Shown: in pieces, positions 3 to 5,438 of the stretch | Position numbering within the stretch: the first letter of the stretch is position 1 | Layout of the letters: the number at the start of each line of letters is the position of its first letter | IMG/VR virus record: IMGVR_UViG_2690316066_000017 | Span: 1-5,996 of that record | Direction: 5' to 3' (one strand) | From: a virus | Lineage: Duplodnaviria; Heunggongvirae; Uroviricota; Caudoviricetes | Length of the DNA stretch: 5,996 nucleotides | Program-made: the position numbers and the translations under genes | Notes under the pieces: generated by a model | Told to the model about the DNA's origin: nothing | The model's input: the letters and a program-made list of their open reading frames with translations, nothing else | The model's database searches: none

Positions 3-548
3 TCCTGCATATCCCTGGAAGAAGCACCACCGGCAAAACAGCAGATTGTCTGTAGTCGCAGTTTTGGTGAACGAATCACAGACAAAGATGCCATGCACCA
101 GGCTGTTGTTCAGTATGCTGAGCGGGCCGCAGAGAAACTACGTGGGGAGCGTCAGTATTGCCGGCAGGTGACGACATTTGTACGGACATCCCCCTTTGCA
201 GTAAAAGAACCCTGTTACAGCAATGCCGCTGTGGAAAAGCTTTCATTGCCCACACAGGACAGCCGGGACATTATTGCCGCCGCATGCAGAGCCTTAAACC
301 ATGTCTGGCGTGAAGGGTACCGCTATATGAAGGCAGGAGTCATGCTGGCTGATTTCACACCATCGGGTATAGCGCAGCCGGGATTATTTGATGAAATCCA
401 GCCCCGTAAAAACAGTGAAAAGTTAATGAAAACACTCGATGAACTGAACCAGTCGGGAAAAGGGAAAGTGTGGTTTGCGGGGCGAGGAACCGCCCCTGAA
501 TGGCAAATGAAACAGGAAATGCTATCGCCTTCGTATACAACACAATAG
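3..548 (+). CDS. umuC: Y-family translesion DNA polymerase, UmuC/MucB/ImpB/SamB family, C-terminal part (5' end lies outside the window)
   Basis: The reading frame is open from position 3 with no stop before TAG at 546-548; the ORF-track start at 93 is only the first internal Met. The translation (...WFAGRGTAPEWQMKQEMLSPSYTTQ) matches the conserved C-terminal region of UmuC-type proteins as I recall them. No umuD-like gene is visible because the upstream region is outside the window. Confidence 0.85.
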   Translation, partial: SCISLEEAPPAKQQIVCSRSFGERITDKDAMHQAVVQYAERAAEKLRGERQYCRQVTTFVRTSPFAVKEPCYSNAAVEKLSLPTQDSRDIIAAACRALNHVWREGYRYMKAGVMLADFTPSGIAQPGLFDEIQPRKNSEKLMKTLDELNQSGKGKVWFAGRGTAPEWQMKQEMLSPSYTTQ

Positions 549-568: not shown

Positions 569-586
569 ATTCTGATATATCAGAAT
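569..586. terminator. 18-bp perfect palindrome (attctgatatatcagaat) followed by a T6 run (589-594) between convergent umuC and stbB; possible weak intrinsic terminator for the + strand transcript
   Basis: Perfect dyad seen directly in the sequence: 7-bp AT-rich stem, 4-nt loop, then aaTTTTTT on the + strand. It overlaps the last codons and stop of stbB (580-582). Confidence 0.3.
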
Positions 587-972
587 AATTTTTTCATTTT
601 AAGACGCACATCATTCATTGCCTCCTGCACCGAATCAGTAGCAGAAGGAGGCATTTTTTCAGCAAATTGCGAAGCACCGAGTTCAGTCAACACAGCTCTG
701 ATATCGGCCTGAGAAGGCTTCCATCCAGTCGTCTGACTGAGTAAGGTTACAACCTGATCTGCTGAAAACTCCTCGCTCAAAATGGCAGTCAGCAATACAG
801 GCAGGCGAGGATCAAGTTGGTGTAACGCCATTCCAGAAATAAATGCATTCCGGAACAGCTCACCACGCTCAGAACGCGGAACGGACTCTATCGCTTCCAA
901 AGTTTGAAAGTCTGCAGCTTTTTCCGGATGCAGATAAAGTGTGTATTTTTTCCTTTTCCGTTCATCGTCCAC
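580..972 (-). CDS. stbB: StbB/ParR-like partition adaptor protein (DNA-binding partner of StbA)
   Basis: Sits immediately downstream of the ParM-like gene in the same orientation, the classic parM-parR order. It is a small protein with a basic N-terminus. The ORF track begins at a TTG at 1008, overlapping stbA by 32 nt; I prefer GTG at 972-970, which lies 4 nt after the stbA stop and is preceded by a strong SD (AAGAGGAG, 7-nt spacer). Stop is TGA at 580-582. Confidence 0.6.
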   Translation of the reverse strand: MDDERKRKKYTLYLHPEKAADFQTLEAIESVPRSERGELFRNAFISGMALHQLDPRLPVLLTAILSEEFSADQVVTLLSQTTGWKPSQADIRAVLTELGASQFAEKMPPSATDSVQEAMNDVRLKMKKLF

Positions 973-976
973 AATA

Positions 977-1948
977 TTACTCCTCTTTGAAAGCCGCGAT
1001 AGCTTCAACCAGTGCTGTCTGTGGCGACTCCATCATCACTACTTTTTGCCCAAGATGGTGCCATGCCGTTTTTATCGAATCATAGATCAACGGGGCCCCA
1101 CCACCGACAACATAAACACGATTCACATGATGGAAATCACCGAGCTCATTGACTACTTGCTCCCCCAAACTGGCAATAGCCCCCTCAATGGTATTAAGGA
1201 CCAGATCAGTTTTTGTTTCGTCATTTATAACCTGCCGAACAAAGTCCGGGTCATTACGACGTTTAATCAATTCATCTGCAACGAGGAAACTGGTATCACT
1301 GGATGCCATGCGCAATGCACTCATTGCAGCTTTCGTAACTGAAGATACACCAATGCCAGAATTACCATGAATGGCACTTACAGAGTCAAATTGACCAACG
1401 ATAACACCAACATCAAGCGTAGTGCCGCCAATATCAACTACCAGCGATTTTTCGAACTGACCAACTTTATCCACGACCAGACGAGAAAACACAGCTGGCA
1501 ATGATTCAGGCATCACATCAACGTGTTCAATGGTGAAAACATCGCCTTTATTAAGACGAATCGGCCCCATTAAATTCTCAATTTTACGCTGAATGTTGAG
1601 TTCATTTTTTTGACACTCTTTCGTATAGAACTCACTGATAGGCAAAGTCACAGTCAATGATACAGGCTGAGGCGCTAATCCACTATTCAGTAAAGCGTGA
1701 TGCACAGCTAACAGGTTAACATCCGTATATTGATACTCAATATGAGTCGTAAGAATAGATTGGTTGCTAACTTCATCATACGTGTATTTTTTACCATCCA
1801 GTTCATAGTTAAATGTCTGGCGAATTCCTAACCCGTCAACCTTCCATCCATGACGAAATGAGTTTTGCGACAACGACTTACAGATTTCCCCATTATCATT
1901 CCATGCCAACTTGATTGTTGTTGAACCATCATCGCAGTATACGTTCAT
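977..1948 (-). CDS. stbA: StbA/ParM-family actin-like segregation ATPase (type II plasmid partition)
   Basis: 323 aa. The N-terminus MNVYCDDGSTTIKLAW resembles the ParM phosphate-1 motif (DDGSTxxK), and downstream DIGGTTLD and VVGGGA motifs are typical of the actin/ParM fold. ATG at 1948-1946 is preceded by AAGGGG SD; stop is TAA at 979-977. Confidence 0.85.
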   Translation of the reverse strand: MNVYCDDGSTTIKLAWNDNGEICKSLSQNSFRHGWKVDGLGIRQTFNYELDGKKYTYDEVSNQSILTTHIEYQYTDVNLLAVHHALLNSGLAPQPVSLTVTLPISEFYTKECQKNELNIQRKIENLMGPIRLNKGDVFTIEHVDVMPESLPAVFSRLVVDKVGQFEKSLVVDIGGTTLDVGVIVGQFDSVSAIHGNSGIGVSSVTKAAMSALRMASSDTSFLVADELIKRRNDPDFVRQVINDETKTDLVLNTIEGAIASLGEQVVNELGDFHHVNRVYVVGGGAPLIYDSIKTAWHHLGQKVVMMESPQTALVEAIAAFKEE

Positions 1949-1961
1949 CTATAGCCCCTTA

Positions 1962-2019
1962 AATACTCAATCTGAGTAAATCATTGTTTCTGGTTGCAAT
2001 GTAATACTCAATTTGAGCA
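1962..2019. repeat. Two copies of a 15-bp palindromic element (AATACTCAATcTGAG at 1962-1976 and AATACTCAATtTGAG at 2003-2017), 41 bp apart, in the stbA leader
   Basis: Direct repeat with one mismatch, seen in the sequence. Each copy contains an inverted repeat (tactca-N3-tgagta; the second arm of copy 2 is tgagca). Operator- or centromere-like geometry upstream of stbA. Confidence 0.6.
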
Positions 2020-2076
2020 CTATCATAGTTATGAAATCACAAAACACAAGTATTATTTATTACATCACATGACACA

Positions 2077-2097
2077 CTTCATATTTCATACTTCATA
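2077..2097. repeat. Three tandem heptamers (CTTCATA TTTCATA CTTCATA); a related 9-mer CATACTTCA recurs at 2087-2095 and 2145-2153
   Basis: Counted directly in the sequence. The repeats flank the 2112-2136 dyad. Iteron-like, possible ParR/StbB binding (parC-like) or repressor sites. Confidence 0.5.
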
Positions 2098-2111
2098 AAT
2101 ATGAACACATA

Positions 2112-2140
2112 TTGACACCTCAGGTTACCGTGTCAAAATA
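2112..2140. promoter_or_regulatory. Inverted repeat TTGACAC-N11-GTGTCAA giving consensus -35 hexamers (TTGACA) on both strands; candidate promoter/operator for the parA-like gene (+) and/or stbAB (-)
   Basis: TTGACA at 2112-2117 (+) and its mirror at 2136-2131 (-). A weak -10-like caaaat at 2134-2139, with TG at 2131-2132, lies 16 bp downstream on the + strand. SD GAGG at 2168-2171 precedes the ATG at 2177. Confidence 0.35.
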
Positions 2141-2176
2141 TCATCATACTTCACACATCATATTTATGAGGTTGCA

Positions 2177-2416
2177 ATGATTACTGTAGTTGGTGGGAAC
2201 AAAGGTGGTTCAGGGAAAACTACCATTGCATCAAACCTGGCTATTGCTCTAGCAAATAAAGGAAGGGAAGTCTGCCTGTTAAACGGAGATCTACAACGAA
2301 CAGCCGCAAAACATCATGCGGAACGAGAAGCTGCAGGACTGTTACCAGCAATAACCCTTGTTGAGAAATTTGATATGCTGATATCAAAGCTGCTGTCATT
2401 GTTGATGTCTGCATAA
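2177..2416 (+). pseudogene. N-terminal fragment of a ParA/MinD-superfamily Walker-type ATPase (type I partition-like), truncated at the junction with P2-like DNA
   Basis: Begins MITVVGGNKGGSGKTT, a deviant Walker A motif (KGGxGKT) at the extreme N-terminus as in small ParA proteins. The ORF is only 79 aa, whereas ParA proteins are roughly 200 aa or more. Its 3' end overlaps the oppositely oriented R fragment, and composition shifts to GC-rich near 2405-2415. Confidence 0.55.
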
Positions 2417-2691
2417 AACGTGAAGCCCTTTTTCTGGCCTTCGTCGGTGGTCATGATGTCGGGCTGATTTTCCCGCAGCCACGCCAGCACCGGCACGATG
2501 AGCAGGTCAAAATCACCGGTAAAGTCGGTCACAATGACATTGAGCGTGTAACGCTTTTCAAATGACAGCGACGCCGCCAGTGTGGAGGCAATACTCCCGT
2601 TATCCACGAATATCCGCAGCATCTCGGGACTGGTTTTCAGCACCGTGACGGCATCAGTCAGCGCCCTGCGCAGGCTGTCGGGTTTGAGCAT
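2314..2691 (-). pseudogene. R: P2 gpR-like tail completion protein, N-terminal fragment; the ORF tail downstream of about 2405 is read-through into unrelated AT-rich DNA
   Basis: Occupies the position after lysC in the P2 late-gene order (K-lysA-lysB-lysC-R-S). Starts at ATG 2691-2689 with an AGGA SD. At 125 aa the ORF is shorter than the roughly 155 aa I recall for gpR, and its C-terminal codons overlap the parA-like fragment on the other strand. Confidence 0.5.
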
Positions 2692-2944
2692 CGTTTTCGT
2701 CCTGACAGTGTTTAATCATTTTTACCTGGCTGGCACAGCGCGCCAGCGCGTTCTCAAGCTGCCGGATATCGGCACTTAAATCGCCGTTCGTCTCCGGGGC
2801 GCTGCCCGGCATCGGGCAAAGACTCACTTTCGGGCAGGCGTTGGGGACAATCACTGGCGTCGGTGCAGGCGGGGCGCTGGTGCAACCGGCGCACAGCATC
2901 AGGCAGGTCAGCGCCGTACCAGCGGCGAAAATCTTCGTTTTCAT
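2654..2944 (-). CDS. lysC: Outer-membrane lipoprotein spanin (Rz1/LysC-like o-spanin)
   Basis: 96 aa. Signal peptide with lipobox (…LMLCAG|C) followed by a Pro-rich segment (TSAPPAPTPVIVP), typical of Rz1. Starts in the +1 frame inside lysB and runs past the lysB stop (overlapped spanin architecture). ATG at 2944-2942 has a GAGG SD. Confidence 0.7.
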   Translation of the reverse strand: MKTKIFAAGTALTCLMLCAGCTSAPPAPTPVIVPNACPKVSLCPMPGSAPETNGDLSADIRQLENALARCASQVKMIKHCQDENDAQTRQPAQGAD

Positions 2945-3224
2945 TCAGTAACCTCGTGATGGTTTTCTCGCGCTGTGCTTCACGCTTCGCCGCGTTCTCC
3001 AGTTCCTGACGCAGTGCCACCTGCGCCAGCTCGTTTTTGTCTGCTCTGGTGAGGGCAACATGAAGCTGATTTTTCAGCATGGTGATGGTCGTCTGCTGCC
3101 CGCTGGCGACGTTGTTCGCCCTGTCCAGCGAGGTGCGCAGGCTGGCGTTTTCATGCTTCGCCAGAAACAGACCGGCCACCGCCAGCGATAACAACACGAC
3201 CAGCACAATCATCAGCTTTGACAT
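2754..3224 (-). CDS. lysB: Inner-membrane spanin (Rz/LysB-like i-spanin)
   Basis: N-terminal transmembrane helix (MIVLVVLLSLAVAGLFLA), then a charged, coiled-coil-like periplasmic domain. Lies directly after lysA with an overlapping start. ATG at 3224 has a GAGGGG SD; an alternative ATG at 3212 overlaps the lysA stop as TGATG. Confidence 0.7.
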   Translation of the reverse strand: MSKLMIVLVVLLSLAVAGLFLAKHENASLRTSLDRANNVASGQQTTITMLKNQLHVALTRADKNELAQVALRQELENAAKREAQREKTITRLLNENEDFRRWYGADLPDAVRRLHQRPACTDASDCPQRLPESESLPDAGQRPGDERRFKCRYPAA

Positions 3225-3637
3225 GGTTCCCGCCCCTCAAAACGCTGACGACAGGCCGTACGTATCAGCCGGAAGAACACCGACGCCACGAGGTAAATCA
3301 GCGCAGTAAAAATCCACCCGGCAGCGACCAGCGAGATAAACGTCGCCACCATCACCACCAGAGCCGCCGCCCGTCTGCGCCACGGCACCGGCTGCAAAAA
3401 CAGCGACGTGACAATCTTCACGGCCAGCGATTCCGGCGGCAGCTCCCGCCCGTAGCGTTCAAGTACATACTCGGTGGCATACACGCCGACACCACCGGCA
3501 ACCACACAGATAACCGTCGCCAGAATCGCCCAGGCGGCGACAAAACTGACGGCCACGCTCTGCGGGTAAATCAGGGACAGTGCCAGCATCATCACCAGCG
3601 ACACGTTCAGCATCAGTGAAAGGGATAATTTCTTCAT
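3212..3637 (-). CDS. lysA: LysA-like polytopic membrane protein (lysis-timing accessory, P2 lysA position)
   Basis: 141 aa with about four hydrophobic transmembrane segments, located between the endolysin and the spanins exactly as P2 lysA. GGAG SD lies 8 nt upstream of ATG 3637. Confidence 0.7.
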   Translation of the reverse strand: MKKLSLSLMLNVSLVMMLALSLIYPQSVAVSFVAAWAILATVICVVAGGVGVYATEYVLERYGRELPPESLAVKIVTSLFLQPVPWRRRAAALVVMVATFISLVAAGWIFTALIYLVASVFFRLIRTACRQRFEGREPCQS

Positions 3638-3651
3638 GGTGTTTACTCCGT

Positions 3652-4149
3652 TTAAGCCGGTACGCCGCCAGCGGTACGCCAGACGGTGACCAGTTTTTCC
3701 AGTGAATGCTCACGCTGACCGTAACCGGCACCCGGCAGGGACGCCCAGATATTGCGACAGCGTGAAATGGCGCGCTCAATGCGTCCCGCCCGGATGTCAT
3801 CCAGTGCACCGCGTTCGCGGATCAACTGAATGGCGAGTCTGTCCTGTGACAACGGACTGAAATCCGGCAGGGCAAGCTGTTTGCGGTAGTGCGGCCAGAA
3901 CAGGTAAAGCTGCTGATAGCGACCGGAGGCCGTGGACTTTTCACCGCGACGGTTAAACACCTTCGCCGGTCGGCCATGCGCGAACGGGTGGTCACTGTAG
4001 TCGGTGAAAATTTCCGGCTTCCCGTCCAGTCCGGTGACTATCACGTCATAGCCCCGGTTTTTCGTCAGCGGATGATTTGCCGTCCCTTCGGACACCGCCA
4101 GCATGTCGAGAAAGGCGGCGATATTCTGATGCGTGTTAATTACCGGCAT
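3652..4149 (-). CDS. K: Endolysin, lambda R-type lytic transglycosylase family (P2 gpK-like)
   Basis: 165 aa. N-terminal FLDMLAVSEGT contains the conserved catalytic Glu of lambda-R-type transglycosylases, and C-terminal NIWASLPGAGYGQ is a conserved family block. The start ATG overlaps the holin stop (TAATG). Confidence 0.9.
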   Translation of the reverse strand: MPVINTHQNIAAFLDMLAVSEGTANHPLTKNRGYDVIVTGLDGKPEIFTDYSDHPFAHGRPAKVFNRRGEKSTASGRYQQLYLFWPHYRKQLALPDFSPLSQDRLAIQLIRERGALDDIRAGRIERAISRCRNIWASLPGAGYGQREHSLEKLVTVWRTAGGVPA

Positions 4150-4430
4150 TACGGTTTCCCCCTGCCCTTAAAGCGGCGCTGAATGGCAATCTCAATCACC
4201 TGATAACCGGCGATACCCAGCATGGAGCCGATGCCGCACACCGCAGGCAGTGACAGGTCAGGAAACTGCACCAGAACAACACCGGCAACCATCGAGACAA
4301 AACCACCGAGCAACATGCGCCCGATAAACAGACGCGGGGTGATGGGTTCACCACCGGCAAGCACCTTGCCGACAACAATCAGCACCCCAATCATAAAAAG
4401 CGACAGGACGCTTTTTTCTTCTGCTGTCAT
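4149..4430 (-). CDS. Y: Holin (class I, three transmembrane segments; P2 gpY-like)
   Basis: 93 aa with three hydrophobic segments and a basic C-terminal tail (QRRFKGRGKP). Immediately upstream of the endolysin and translationally coupled to it. GGGAG SD upstream of ATG 4430. Confidence 0.8.
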   Translation of the reverse strand: MTAEEKSVLSLFMIGVLIVVGKVLAGGEPITPRLFIGRMLLGGFVSMVAGVVLVQFPDLSLPAVCGIGSMLGIAGYQVIEIAIQRRFKGRGKP

Positions 4431-4433
4431 GCG

Positions 4434-4637
4434 TTACTCCCACAGATTGACAGTTTCAGCCACGGGCGCGGTCTGAACGTCGGGCAGTTCGACGGCGGTG
4501 CCGTGCGGCAGCACTGCACCCAGTTCAGCCAGTCCCGGATTTGCGGCGAGCACGGCTTCGACCACGCCCTCAGTGCGCCCGTAATACCGGACACAAATGG
4601 CGTCGAGCGTGTCGCCCTGTAGCGCAAAGGTCTTCAT
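4434..4637 (-). CDS. X: P2 gpX-like small tail protein (LysM-like)
   Basis: 67 aa from the internal ATG at 4637-4635 (MKTFALQGDTLDAICVRYYG...), which overlaps the L stop as TGATG. The 90-aa extension in the ORF track would overlap L by 69 nt and is not preferred. Confidence 0.75.
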   Translation of the reverse strand: MKTFALQGDTLDAICVRYYGRTEGVVEAVLAANPGLAELGAVLPHGTAVELPDVQTAPVAETVNLWE

Positions 4638-5146
4638 CAGATTTGACTCACGATGCAGCGCGGTTTGTCCTGGATACGCGCCACCGCCCAGCGCATATCC
4701 CGCCACAGCTCATCAATGGTGCTGTCAATGCTGTCAGCCTTCTTGTCACCTTTCGCACTGGCATCCACGCCGCGATAACGCTCATAAAGCGACGCGGTCG
4801 CCATCGCACACACGGCGCGCTCGTAGTAAAAAACTTTGATGCTTTCACCGTCGATATCGTCCGCCGGGACGTCCGCCAGACACGTAAAACCGGCGGCAAT
4901 TTTCTGTTCGCGGTACTCGTACAGCTCCGCATTTGTCTCCGCCATGCCTGACTTGATGGCCTCACGCAGACGGGCGGGGGCGACGGTCTGCTCAAGGCGC
5001 ATACGTTCCCGGACGCGCTTCGGGTCGATATCGGGAAAAAAGAACGTGTTTTTAATCACCGGCTCGTCGCCTGCCGGTTGCGGGATGACCACCGTACCCT
5101 CACCGGACACGGGAGCCTCCTTTCGCGGAATAATCAGCGTCATCAT
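4637..5146 (-). CDS. L: P2 gpL-like head completion protein
   Basis: 169 aa from the ATG at 5146-5144 (MMTLIIPRKEAP...), preceded by a GAGG SD. The ORF-track start at 5206 adds 20 residues with no SD. Position and size fit P2 gpL. Confidence 0.75.
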   Translation of the reverse strand: MMTLIIPRKEAPVSGEGTVVIPQPAGDEPVIKNTFFFPDIDPKRVRERMRLEQTVAPARLREAIKSGMAETNAELYEYREQKIAAGFTCLADVPADDIDGESIKVFYYERAVCAMATASLYERYRGVDASAKGDKKADSIDSTIDELWRDMRWAVARIQDKPRCIVSQI

Positions 5147-5245
5147 GACTACCTCAGAAAAGTCGGGCGGTGGACGCCGGTGCAGTGTCAGGTGATTCAC
5201 CCTCACTGACCGGCGTGCCGCCCTGGCGCGGGGCGCATTCGGTTG

Positions 5246-5428
5246 TTAACTGGCTTTCTTTTTCGGGCGTCCACGTTTTGCCGGTGTCACGCTCCGGGTC
5301 TTACGCGGGGCGCGGGTGGCCGCTTTGGGCTGCGGCTCCGGCTTCGGTTTCAGCTCCCGCTCCAGTCGTTCAATCTCTTTTTTGACGCCTGCCTGACAGT
5401 CGAGCTGTGTCGCACGTTGCAGGTGAGC
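5246..5428 (-). pseudogene. M: C-terminal fragment of a P2 gpM-like terminase small (endonuclease) subunit, truncated at its 5' side by the junction/ambiguous bases
   Basis: Only about 60 codons remain before the stop at 5246-5248, and the frame enters the N stretch at 5429-5438. Its position upstream of L matches P2 order (O-N-M-L). The C-terminus is very basic with an AT-hook-like KRGRPKKK. Identity as M is inferred from position and memory, not verified. Confidence 0.45.
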
Positions 5429-5438
5429 NNNCNNANNN
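5429..5438. other. Stretch of ambiguous bases (nnncnnannn) exactly at the boundary between P2-like DNA and the fimbrial usher fragment
   Basis: Seen directly in the sequence. GC-rich phage-type sequence lies to the left and AT-rich usher sequence to the right. Confidence 0.95.

Follow-up and report, generated by a model that had tools for sequence, protein, structure and literature searches.

The repeat-dense spacer between parM and parA in a Caudoviricetes record is very probably parC1 of a pB171-type double partition locus

The spacer between a minus-strand stbA gene and the divergent start of a parA-like gene raises the question of which proteins its many short repeats serve. It occupies 228 bp of the window, by which we mean the whole 5,996-nucleotide stretch of DNA that was analyzed, from a Caudoviricetes virus record. 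A sequence-only reading had described it as an AT-rich control region with two palindromic elements, three tandem heptamers with a related 9-mer, and a dyad, compatible with a parC-like centromere/operator on the model of R1 parMRC. All of these repeats are found both by reading the sequence and with a repeat finder, and the spacer has a GC content of 0.31 vs. 0.43 to 0.46 in the flanking genes. The spacer is very probably the already characterized parC1 of a pB171-type double partition locus, where it would serve both par1 and par2. This interpretation is based on protein identities, repeat anatomy, conservation, and co-occurrence, all of them read from sequence; within it, we infer the exact ParB unit, the positions of promoters P1 and P2, and the geometry of cross-repression. 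The parC1 region was known already, with the possible exception of an extra ParR box within parM that may be unreported. The genes and the spacer are as follows.

580 to 972, minus strand: parR (stbB), 130 aa with a GTG start, the centromere-binding ribbon-helix-helix protein of par1
977 to 1948, minus strand: parM (stbA), the actin-like partition ATPase of par1, with Pfam StbA_N and ParM C-terminal domains
1949 to 2176, no strand: very probable parC1, the 228-bp centromere/operator spacer common to divergent parM-parR and parA(-parB)
2177 to 2376, plus strand: parA 5' fragment, about 66 of 214 codons, encoding a Walker-type Ib ATPase of par2

The proteins place the locus. ParR (StbB) is identical at 128 of 130 positions (98%, E 3e-79, by sequence comparison) to PDB 2JD3, which was deposited as "StbB protein" and is named pB171 ParR in PMC3074162; it also matches Pfam Plasmid_stab_B (E 7e-30), and parR homologues are annotated at 393 nt. 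With this identity and the divergent arrangement of two minus-strand open reading frames (977 to 1948 and 580 to 972) and one plus-strand frame starting at 2177, the earlier proposal of a centromere/operator belonging to a parMRC-type locus was right in kind, though incomplete. The window parM shares 99% identity with the parM genes of many E. coli plasmids, the segment from 1900 to 2388 matches 1037 PLSDB plasmids, nearly all at 95 to 99% identity, and the spacer alone has about 1025 PLSDB plasmid matches, mostly 92 to 99% identical. Only the first ~66 parA codons of par2 lie in the window, and its genes are seen whole in E. coli 55989p (locus L001), where parR-parM and parA (214 aa)-parB (91 aa) diverge from a 228-bp spacer and are followed by a parC2 intergenic stretch, a gene layout also present in 14 other fetched loci and in about 1000 enterobacterial plasmids in PLSDB. 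The intact ParA of L001 belongs to Walker ATPase families and its 91-aa ParB scores as RHH_1 above the Pfam cut-off; a PDB sequence search with ParB returned no relative of known structure. In the literature, pB171 ParB is likewise a ribbon-helix-helix (RHH) protein with two parC sites.

On the other side of parR, a umuC/impB-type gene for a Y-family DNA polymerase, of which the window has the 3' part (93 to 548, plus strand), is convergent on parR; almost every related plasmid fetched keeps this neighbor. The parR stop codon lies within a perfect 16-bp palindrome, TTCTGATATATCAGAA, at 570 to 585; the palindrome stands in the same place as a 3' ParR-type box of Enterobacter-type loci but has another sequence.

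The plasmid match ends, and a P2-like phage match begins, at ~2371 to 2388, which makes the window a mosaic or scaffold. At this junction (~2376), parA breaks off after ~66 codons and runs into a truncated P2-like phage tail gene, so that parB and parC2 are absent; a phage lysis and tail module follows from 2375 to 5428, then an interrupted N run (5430 to 5438) and a fimbrial-usher-like open reading frame. The parA/phage junction is spanned by no PLSDB record and by none of 5426 complete E. coli genomes, and it is probably an assembly chimera or a scaffold join. If it were real, the heptad repeats described below would be orphan sites in this molecule.

Assigning the repeats relied on a comparative set of 21 parC1-type spacers and 13 other parM loci. 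The fetched loci comprised 15 divergent loci with ParM 75 to 99% identical (from Escherichia, Salmonella, Enterobacter, Mixta, Leclercia, Lelliottia, Citrobacter, and Hafnia), 4 loci with more distant ParM (57 to 67% identical), and 14 loci from a genome scan; 16 sequences entered the spacer alignment. A palindromic model of the ParR box, ACTCA-N3-TGAGT at 9/10 or better, was scanned across whole loci of 3 to 7.5 kb. Statistics on repeat pairs and inverted repeats used 500 dinucleotide shuffles, and those on heptad cores used 2000.

Closest to parM stand two 15-mers, AATACTCAATCTGAG (1962 to 1976) and AATACTCAATTTGAG (2003 to 2017), which agree at 14 of 15 positions, with starts separated by 41 bp. 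Pairs of 15-mers differing at no more than one position arose in 0.8% of the shuffles. Both had been called palindromic, which is accurate for the first (TACTCA-ATC-TGAGTA); the second pairs at only 5 of 6 positions per arm. Each contains the same 10-bp direct repeat.

1962 to 1977, no strand: ParR box 1 (proximal), with the 10-bp repeat AATACTCAAT at 1962 to 1971 and the palindromic core ACTCAATCTGAGT at 1965 to 1977
2003 to 2018, no strand: ParR box 2 (distal), with the 10-bp repeat AATACTCAAT at 2003 to 2012 and the core ACTCAATTTGAGC at 2006 to 2018

In the 16-sequence alignment the boxes are conserved islands (TACTCAA..TGAG), while the ~26 bp between them vary freely, and their spacing is held at 39 to 41 bp in 21 of 21 spacers. 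Matches to the box model are almost only parM-linked: they fall upstream of parM, at +201 within it in most loci, and, in certain lineages, immediately beyond the 3' end of parR, the sole match elsewhere being a 9/10 site at +612 inside parM of L031. The number of boxes upstream of parM is one to four in every locus and two in pB171-type spacers, where they sit at about -70 and -29. Boxes precede parM where parAB is divergent, where a parAB of an unrelated family lies in tandem (L004, L005, L025, L026, L029 to L031, and L033), where parAB is not adjacent (L027, L028, L006, and L007), and in a chromosomal fragment (L032). Since they are kept in all of these parAB contexts, the boxes belong to ParMR. 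On this comparative evidence, the two 15-bp boxes with core ACTCA-N3-TGAGT, which contain the published two 10-bp repeats, are the predicted ParR (StbB) sites. The same ParMR clade thus also occurs in a tandem double-par form, with both operons in one orientation: an unrelated parA-parB of type Ib, with GCTGCAAGAT-type repeats, comes first, then two to four ParR boxes, and then parM-parR. Counting the divergent form, the clade has therefore been joined to two ParAB modules of different kinds, in two geometries.

In common with parC of R1/NR1, the region has its place upstream of parM, is predicted to bind an RHH ParR, and would also act as the operator of the parMR promoter, and the ParM proteins are homologous, at ~41% identity to R1-type ParM among PLSDB matches. 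In R1, parC is built of ten 11-bp iterons, five on each side of the promoter. The window instead has two 13- to 15-bp palindromic boxes 41 bp apart and a third in parM, and no 11-bp iteron family was found in it, with only two boxes upstream of parM, which bears out the earlier remark that these units are unlike those of R1. Published work gives the R1 parC repeats as 11 bp and has pB171 ParR bind two 10-bp direct repeats (PMC9426499). R1 parC also differs in being without a second partition system.

The dyad TTGACAC-N11-GTGTCAA (2112 to 2136) had been taken to place a consensus -35 hexamer on each strand. Its perfect 7-bp arms are there, but 32% of shuffles also contain a perfect inverted repeat whose arms reach 7 bp or more around a loop of 3 to 20 nt, so the dyad alone is unremarkable. 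The arms are kept in all E. coli/Salmonella-type copies; in Enterobacter, Citrobacter, Lelliottia, and Hafnia the right arm reads GTGACAG, GTGCCAG, ATGAGAG, or TTGAAAG, and the parA-strand -35, N16, and -10 are kept. A promoter scan found a single sigma-70-like site (10/12, with TG); 20 of 21 spacers retain its pattern, TTGAC[AT]-N16-NA[AGT]AAT, and do so solely on the parA strand. As the right arm varies while the parA-strand promoter pattern is kept, the dyad is best read as the -35 and extended -10 of P2 and not as a conserved symmetric operator. The dyad could in principle serve a third regulator as its operator, or form the core of a bidirectional promoter whose halves stand back to back with one -35 per strand, given that its arms are perfect, are retained throughout the E. 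coli/Salmonella type, and each read TTGACA on their own strand. We consider this unlikely: besides the shuffles and the drift of the right arm, the minus-strand TTGACA has no acceptable -10 at 16 to 18 nt (AATATG), lies ~180 bp from parM, and drew no minus-strand promoter site from the scan.

2112 to 2139, plus strand: predicted P2 (parA promoter), with -35 TTGACA at 2112 to 2117, 16 nt, TG at 2131 to 2132, and -10 CAAAAT at 2134 to 2139
2022 to 2049, minus strand: candidate P1 (parM promoter), with -35 TTGTGT at 2049 to 2044, 16 nt, and -10 TATGAT at 2027 to 2022

We assign P1, the promoter for parM, to 2049 to 2022 with moderate confidence. Its pattern, ATCAT[AG]-N16-ACACAA, keeps a fixed spacing in 21 of 21 spacers, AAACACAAGTA in this region is invariant in the alignment, and the predicted start at ~2015 lies inside ParR box 2; the -35 matches only 3 of 6 positions, which makes this the weakest step of the best explanation. 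An alternative P1, TTGAGT-N17-AACAAT between the ParR boxes, has its -10 in an unconserved stretch and ranked below TTGTGT-N16-TATGAT. Three other candidate elements were set aside or not found. The IHF consensus WATCAANNNNTTR, at up to one mismatch, matches the spacer once (1977 to 1989, minus strand), in the unconserved stretch between the boxes, with 5 matches found in the window vs. 5.2 expected. An exact 10-mer, GGTTGCAATG, occurs at 1992 to 2001 and 2170 to 2179; the latter of these is the parA ribosome-binding site together with the ATG, the former is lost in L001 and in Enterobacter-type spacers, and the repeat is probably due to chance. No Rfam match at E of 1 or below was found for an RNA element in positions 1 to 2600 of the window.

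The remaining repeats form arrays of 7-bp units. The heptamers CTTCATA TTTCATA CTTCATA at 2077 to 2097 and the 9-mer CATACTTCA (2145 to 2153, identical to 2087 to 2095) that were first noticed are real but under-count the set: on both strands the spacer holds 12 TCAYA cores, vs. 3.8 +/- 1.7 in shuffles, none of 2000 of which reached 12, and vs. 1.1 per 228 bp in the rest of the plasmid part. Eight cores share one mod-7 register (2023 plus, 2030 minus, 2037 plus, 2065 plus, 2079 plus, 2086 plus, 2093 plus, and 2100 minus) and four share another (2144 plus, 2151 plus, 2158 plus, and 2165 minus), with autocorrelation peaks at lags 7 and 14. When three degenerate units (2043, 2071, and 2106) are included, the first register has 13 slots and the second has four. 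They fall into three clusters.

2022 to 2042, no strand: heptad cluster A, ATCATAG / TTATGAA (inverted) / ATCACAA, conserved in the alignment; putative ParB sites
2064 to 2112, no strand: heptad cluster B, seven 7-bp slots in a register shared with cluster A; putative ParB sites
2143 to 2170, no strand: heptad cluster C, ATCATAC / TTCACAC / ATCATAT / TTATGAG (inverted); putative ParB sites

Cluster B, with clear cores at 2065, 2079, 2086, and 2093 (plus) and 2100 (minus) and degenerate units at 2071 to 2077 and 2106 to 2112, takes in the three heptamers of the earlier description. Cluster C takes in its 9-mer, sits between the P2 -10 and the parA Shine-Dalgarno, and contains TCATACTTCACA-ATCA-ATTTATGAGG (2144 to 2171), which with only two variable columns is the longest conserved block in the spacer. 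Across 281 heptad units the consensus is (C/A/T)(A/T)TCA(T/C)A, that is, a 7-bp period with a core of 5 to 6 bp. The pB171 papers (Ebersbach and Gerdes in 2001; Ringgaard et al. in 2007), by contrast, are said to describe the ParB repeats as 6-bp units. They reportedly count 17 ParB repeats in parC1.

Which protein these units serve is indicated by where they recur. Upstream arrays are seen in the window, where parA is cut at ~2376, and heptads at exact 7-bp spacing stand directly downstream of parB in 15 of 15 intact loci; the 13-mer TTATGAAATCACA of cluster A recurs in parC2 downstream of parB in the L001/E. coli type. No phased heptads were found upstream of parM in nine loci without pB171-type parAB (L025 to L033), which keep their ParR boxes. 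Because the heptads recur downstream of parB and are absent without pB171-type parAB, they are read as par2 sites, and we infer that the WTCAYA units are sites for the ribbon-helix-helix ParB and not for StbB. The comparison of repeats across upstream regions of stbA homologues, which the sequence-only reading had proposed as a check, thus found boxes in every lineage, heptads only with pB171-type parA-parB, and a dyad that is not conserved.

These distributions also weigh on the notion of a single R1-like parC, in which boxes, heptamers, and dyad would all be StbB/ParR sites and the parA neighbor would be unrelated. The region does lie directly upstream of parM, as in R1, and ParR, an RHH protein, recognizes direct repeats (PMC9426499), but heptads far from parM in 15 of 15 loci, their loss from L025 to L033 while boxes persist, and the lack of any sequence common to heptads and boxes make this very improbable. 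The sequence-only reading spoke of one system, with StbB/ParR binding, and left the three repeat sets unassigned; on the present evidence two partition systems share the region, with the two 15-bp boxes assigned to ParR and the heptamers tied to the second system, parA-parB.

The repeats overlap or flank both predicted promoters. Cluster B ends at the P2 -35 and cluster C spans from about +1 to the Shine-Dalgarno, a classic layout that would suit ParB repression of P2. The -10 and spacer of P1 coincide with cluster A. Ringgaard et al. in 2007 reportedly state in their abstract that ParB represses the non-cognate operon, and cluster A over the P1 -10 and spacer would account for such repression of parM-parR. 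The arrays also vary in a simple way: spacer lengths of 221, 228 to 230, 235 to 239, 243, and 250 bp differ largely by whole TTCATAC units, and arrays range from one fewer to three more units than 2064 to 2112 of the window (L003, L008 to L012, L014, L016, L017, and L021 to L024). This gain and loss of whole units suggests slippage-driven tuning of centromere and operator strength.

A test plasmid was reportedly stabilized, in work of Ebersbach and Gerdes from 2001, by each locus with parC1. That report tells against a control region with autoregulatory operators only and centromeres elsewhere (for example, in parC2 or the intragenic box), an idea that gains from repeats overlapping or flanking both predicted promoters and from further ParR-type boxes outside the spacer, but that has little probability given that pB171 par2 constructs are described as parC1+ parA parB parC2+ (PMC4270457) and that the upstream array is regarded as part of the centromere (PMC7602700, PMC2441792).

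Set beside pB171 parC1, the region has the same gene order and divergent arrangement, two 10-bp direct repeats adjoining parM, a spacer of ~200 bp, and short-repeat arrays for an RHH ParB that precede parA and, where relatives are intact, also follow parB. It differs at 2 of 130 ParR residues, in a spacer 92 to 99% identical to other family members, and in a par2 cut after ~66 parA codons. The heptad layout also resembles parS of pSM19035, in which 7 to 10 contiguous 5'-WATCACW-3' heptads, direct and inverted, lie over promoters, with one RHH dimer of Omega per heptad and a need for at least four contiguous units (PMC9499535). Both have contiguous 7-bp units of mixed orientation that overlap promoters and are paired with a small RHH protein and a type Ib ParA; in the window, clusters 2022 to 2042, 2064 to 2112, and 2143 to 2170 keep strict 7-bp registers flanking P2, and units such as AATCACA and CATCACA fit or nearly fit the pSM19035 consensus. 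ParB had no sequence match to Omega structures in the PDB, and the unit consensus here is WTCAYA, mostly TTCATA, and not 5'-WATCACW-3'. The host phylum also differs, and in the present family arrays stand at both ends of one operon, in a spacer common with a type II system.

Taken as parC1, the region would work through two complexes. For par1 (type II), ParR dimers would bind the two ACTCA-N3-TGAGT boxes and build a partition complex capping ParM filaments, and ParR would also repress P1, the parM-parR promoter with its start inside box 2. For par2 (type Ib), the small RHH ParB may bind contiguous 7-bp WTCAYA units cooperatively, in direct and inverted orientation, in three clusters on both sides of P2 and again in parC2. 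ParB on the heptad runs of parC1 and parC2 would then form the par2 centromere and act as a cargo adaptor stimulating nucleoid-bound ParA; the same complex would shut off P2 and probably P1 too, with cluster A over P1 providing cross-talk through ParB repression of parM-parR.

The box model also drew attention to a site within parM, outside 1949 to 2176.

~1735 to 1747, minus strand: candidate third ParR-type box, ACTCATATTGAGT, inside parM at codons T68 to Y72, +201 from the ATG

This site is an exact match to TACTCAANNTGAG, for which 0.07 matches are expected in the window, and it encodes T68-H-I-E-Y72. Among 18 parM genes (64 to 99% nucleotide identity, mean 73%) it is the most conserved 13-mer, ranking 1 to 2 of 963, and all top 11 windows overlap it. 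Degenerate codons of invariant residues are identical in all 12 representatives at only 10 of 182 positions, three of which are T68, I70, and E71; the third bases of these codons that the box specifies are fixed, and the third base of His69, in the N3 spacer, varies. Serratia fonticola (L030) alone has a recoded box, ACG CAT ATT GAA TAC, and its locus has four perfect boxes upstream. The box occurs in plasmids of Escherichia, Enterobacter, Citrobacter, Buttiauxella, Dryocola, Hafnia, and Providencia. Such conservation points to selection on the DNA, most simply for a third ParR site 230 bp from box 1. That the par1 centromere/operator of the ParMR clade extends beyond parC1, with a third ParR box in parM under DNA-level selection, is a tentative proposal that we regard as a serious possibility and not as the expected outcome. 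ParR bound at sites 230 bp apart might draw the 5' part of parM into the partition complex by looping or wrapping the DNA, or might act as an intragenic roadblock. A search of literature other than the primary pB171 papers found no report of an intragenic ParR site.

A further 9/10 ParR-type box, ACTCAAATTGAGG, lies immediately past the parR stop codon, +1359 to +1367 relative to the parM ATG, in loci of Enterobacter, Citrobacter, Hafnia, and Dryocola types (L002, L008 to L018, L022 to L024, and L027 to L029). It overlaps the end of the convergent umuC; about 0.15 such matches are expected per locus, and one chance match passed on by descent could account for it.

The pB171 par region is a textbook model of plasmid segregation, and recognition of parC1 in this window closes the finding as such. 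What is gained is a comparative assignment of each repeat set to a protein, putative in the case of ParB, and a picture of a ParB array that evolves through gain and loss of whole 7-bp units. ParR forms a 12-dimer helix in crystals, and if the box within parM is a true site, it could help explain how a protein that assembles in this way works with only two upstream boxes. A functional third box would change the picture of the par1 partition complex in ~1000 sequenced IncF/IncI-type plasmids.
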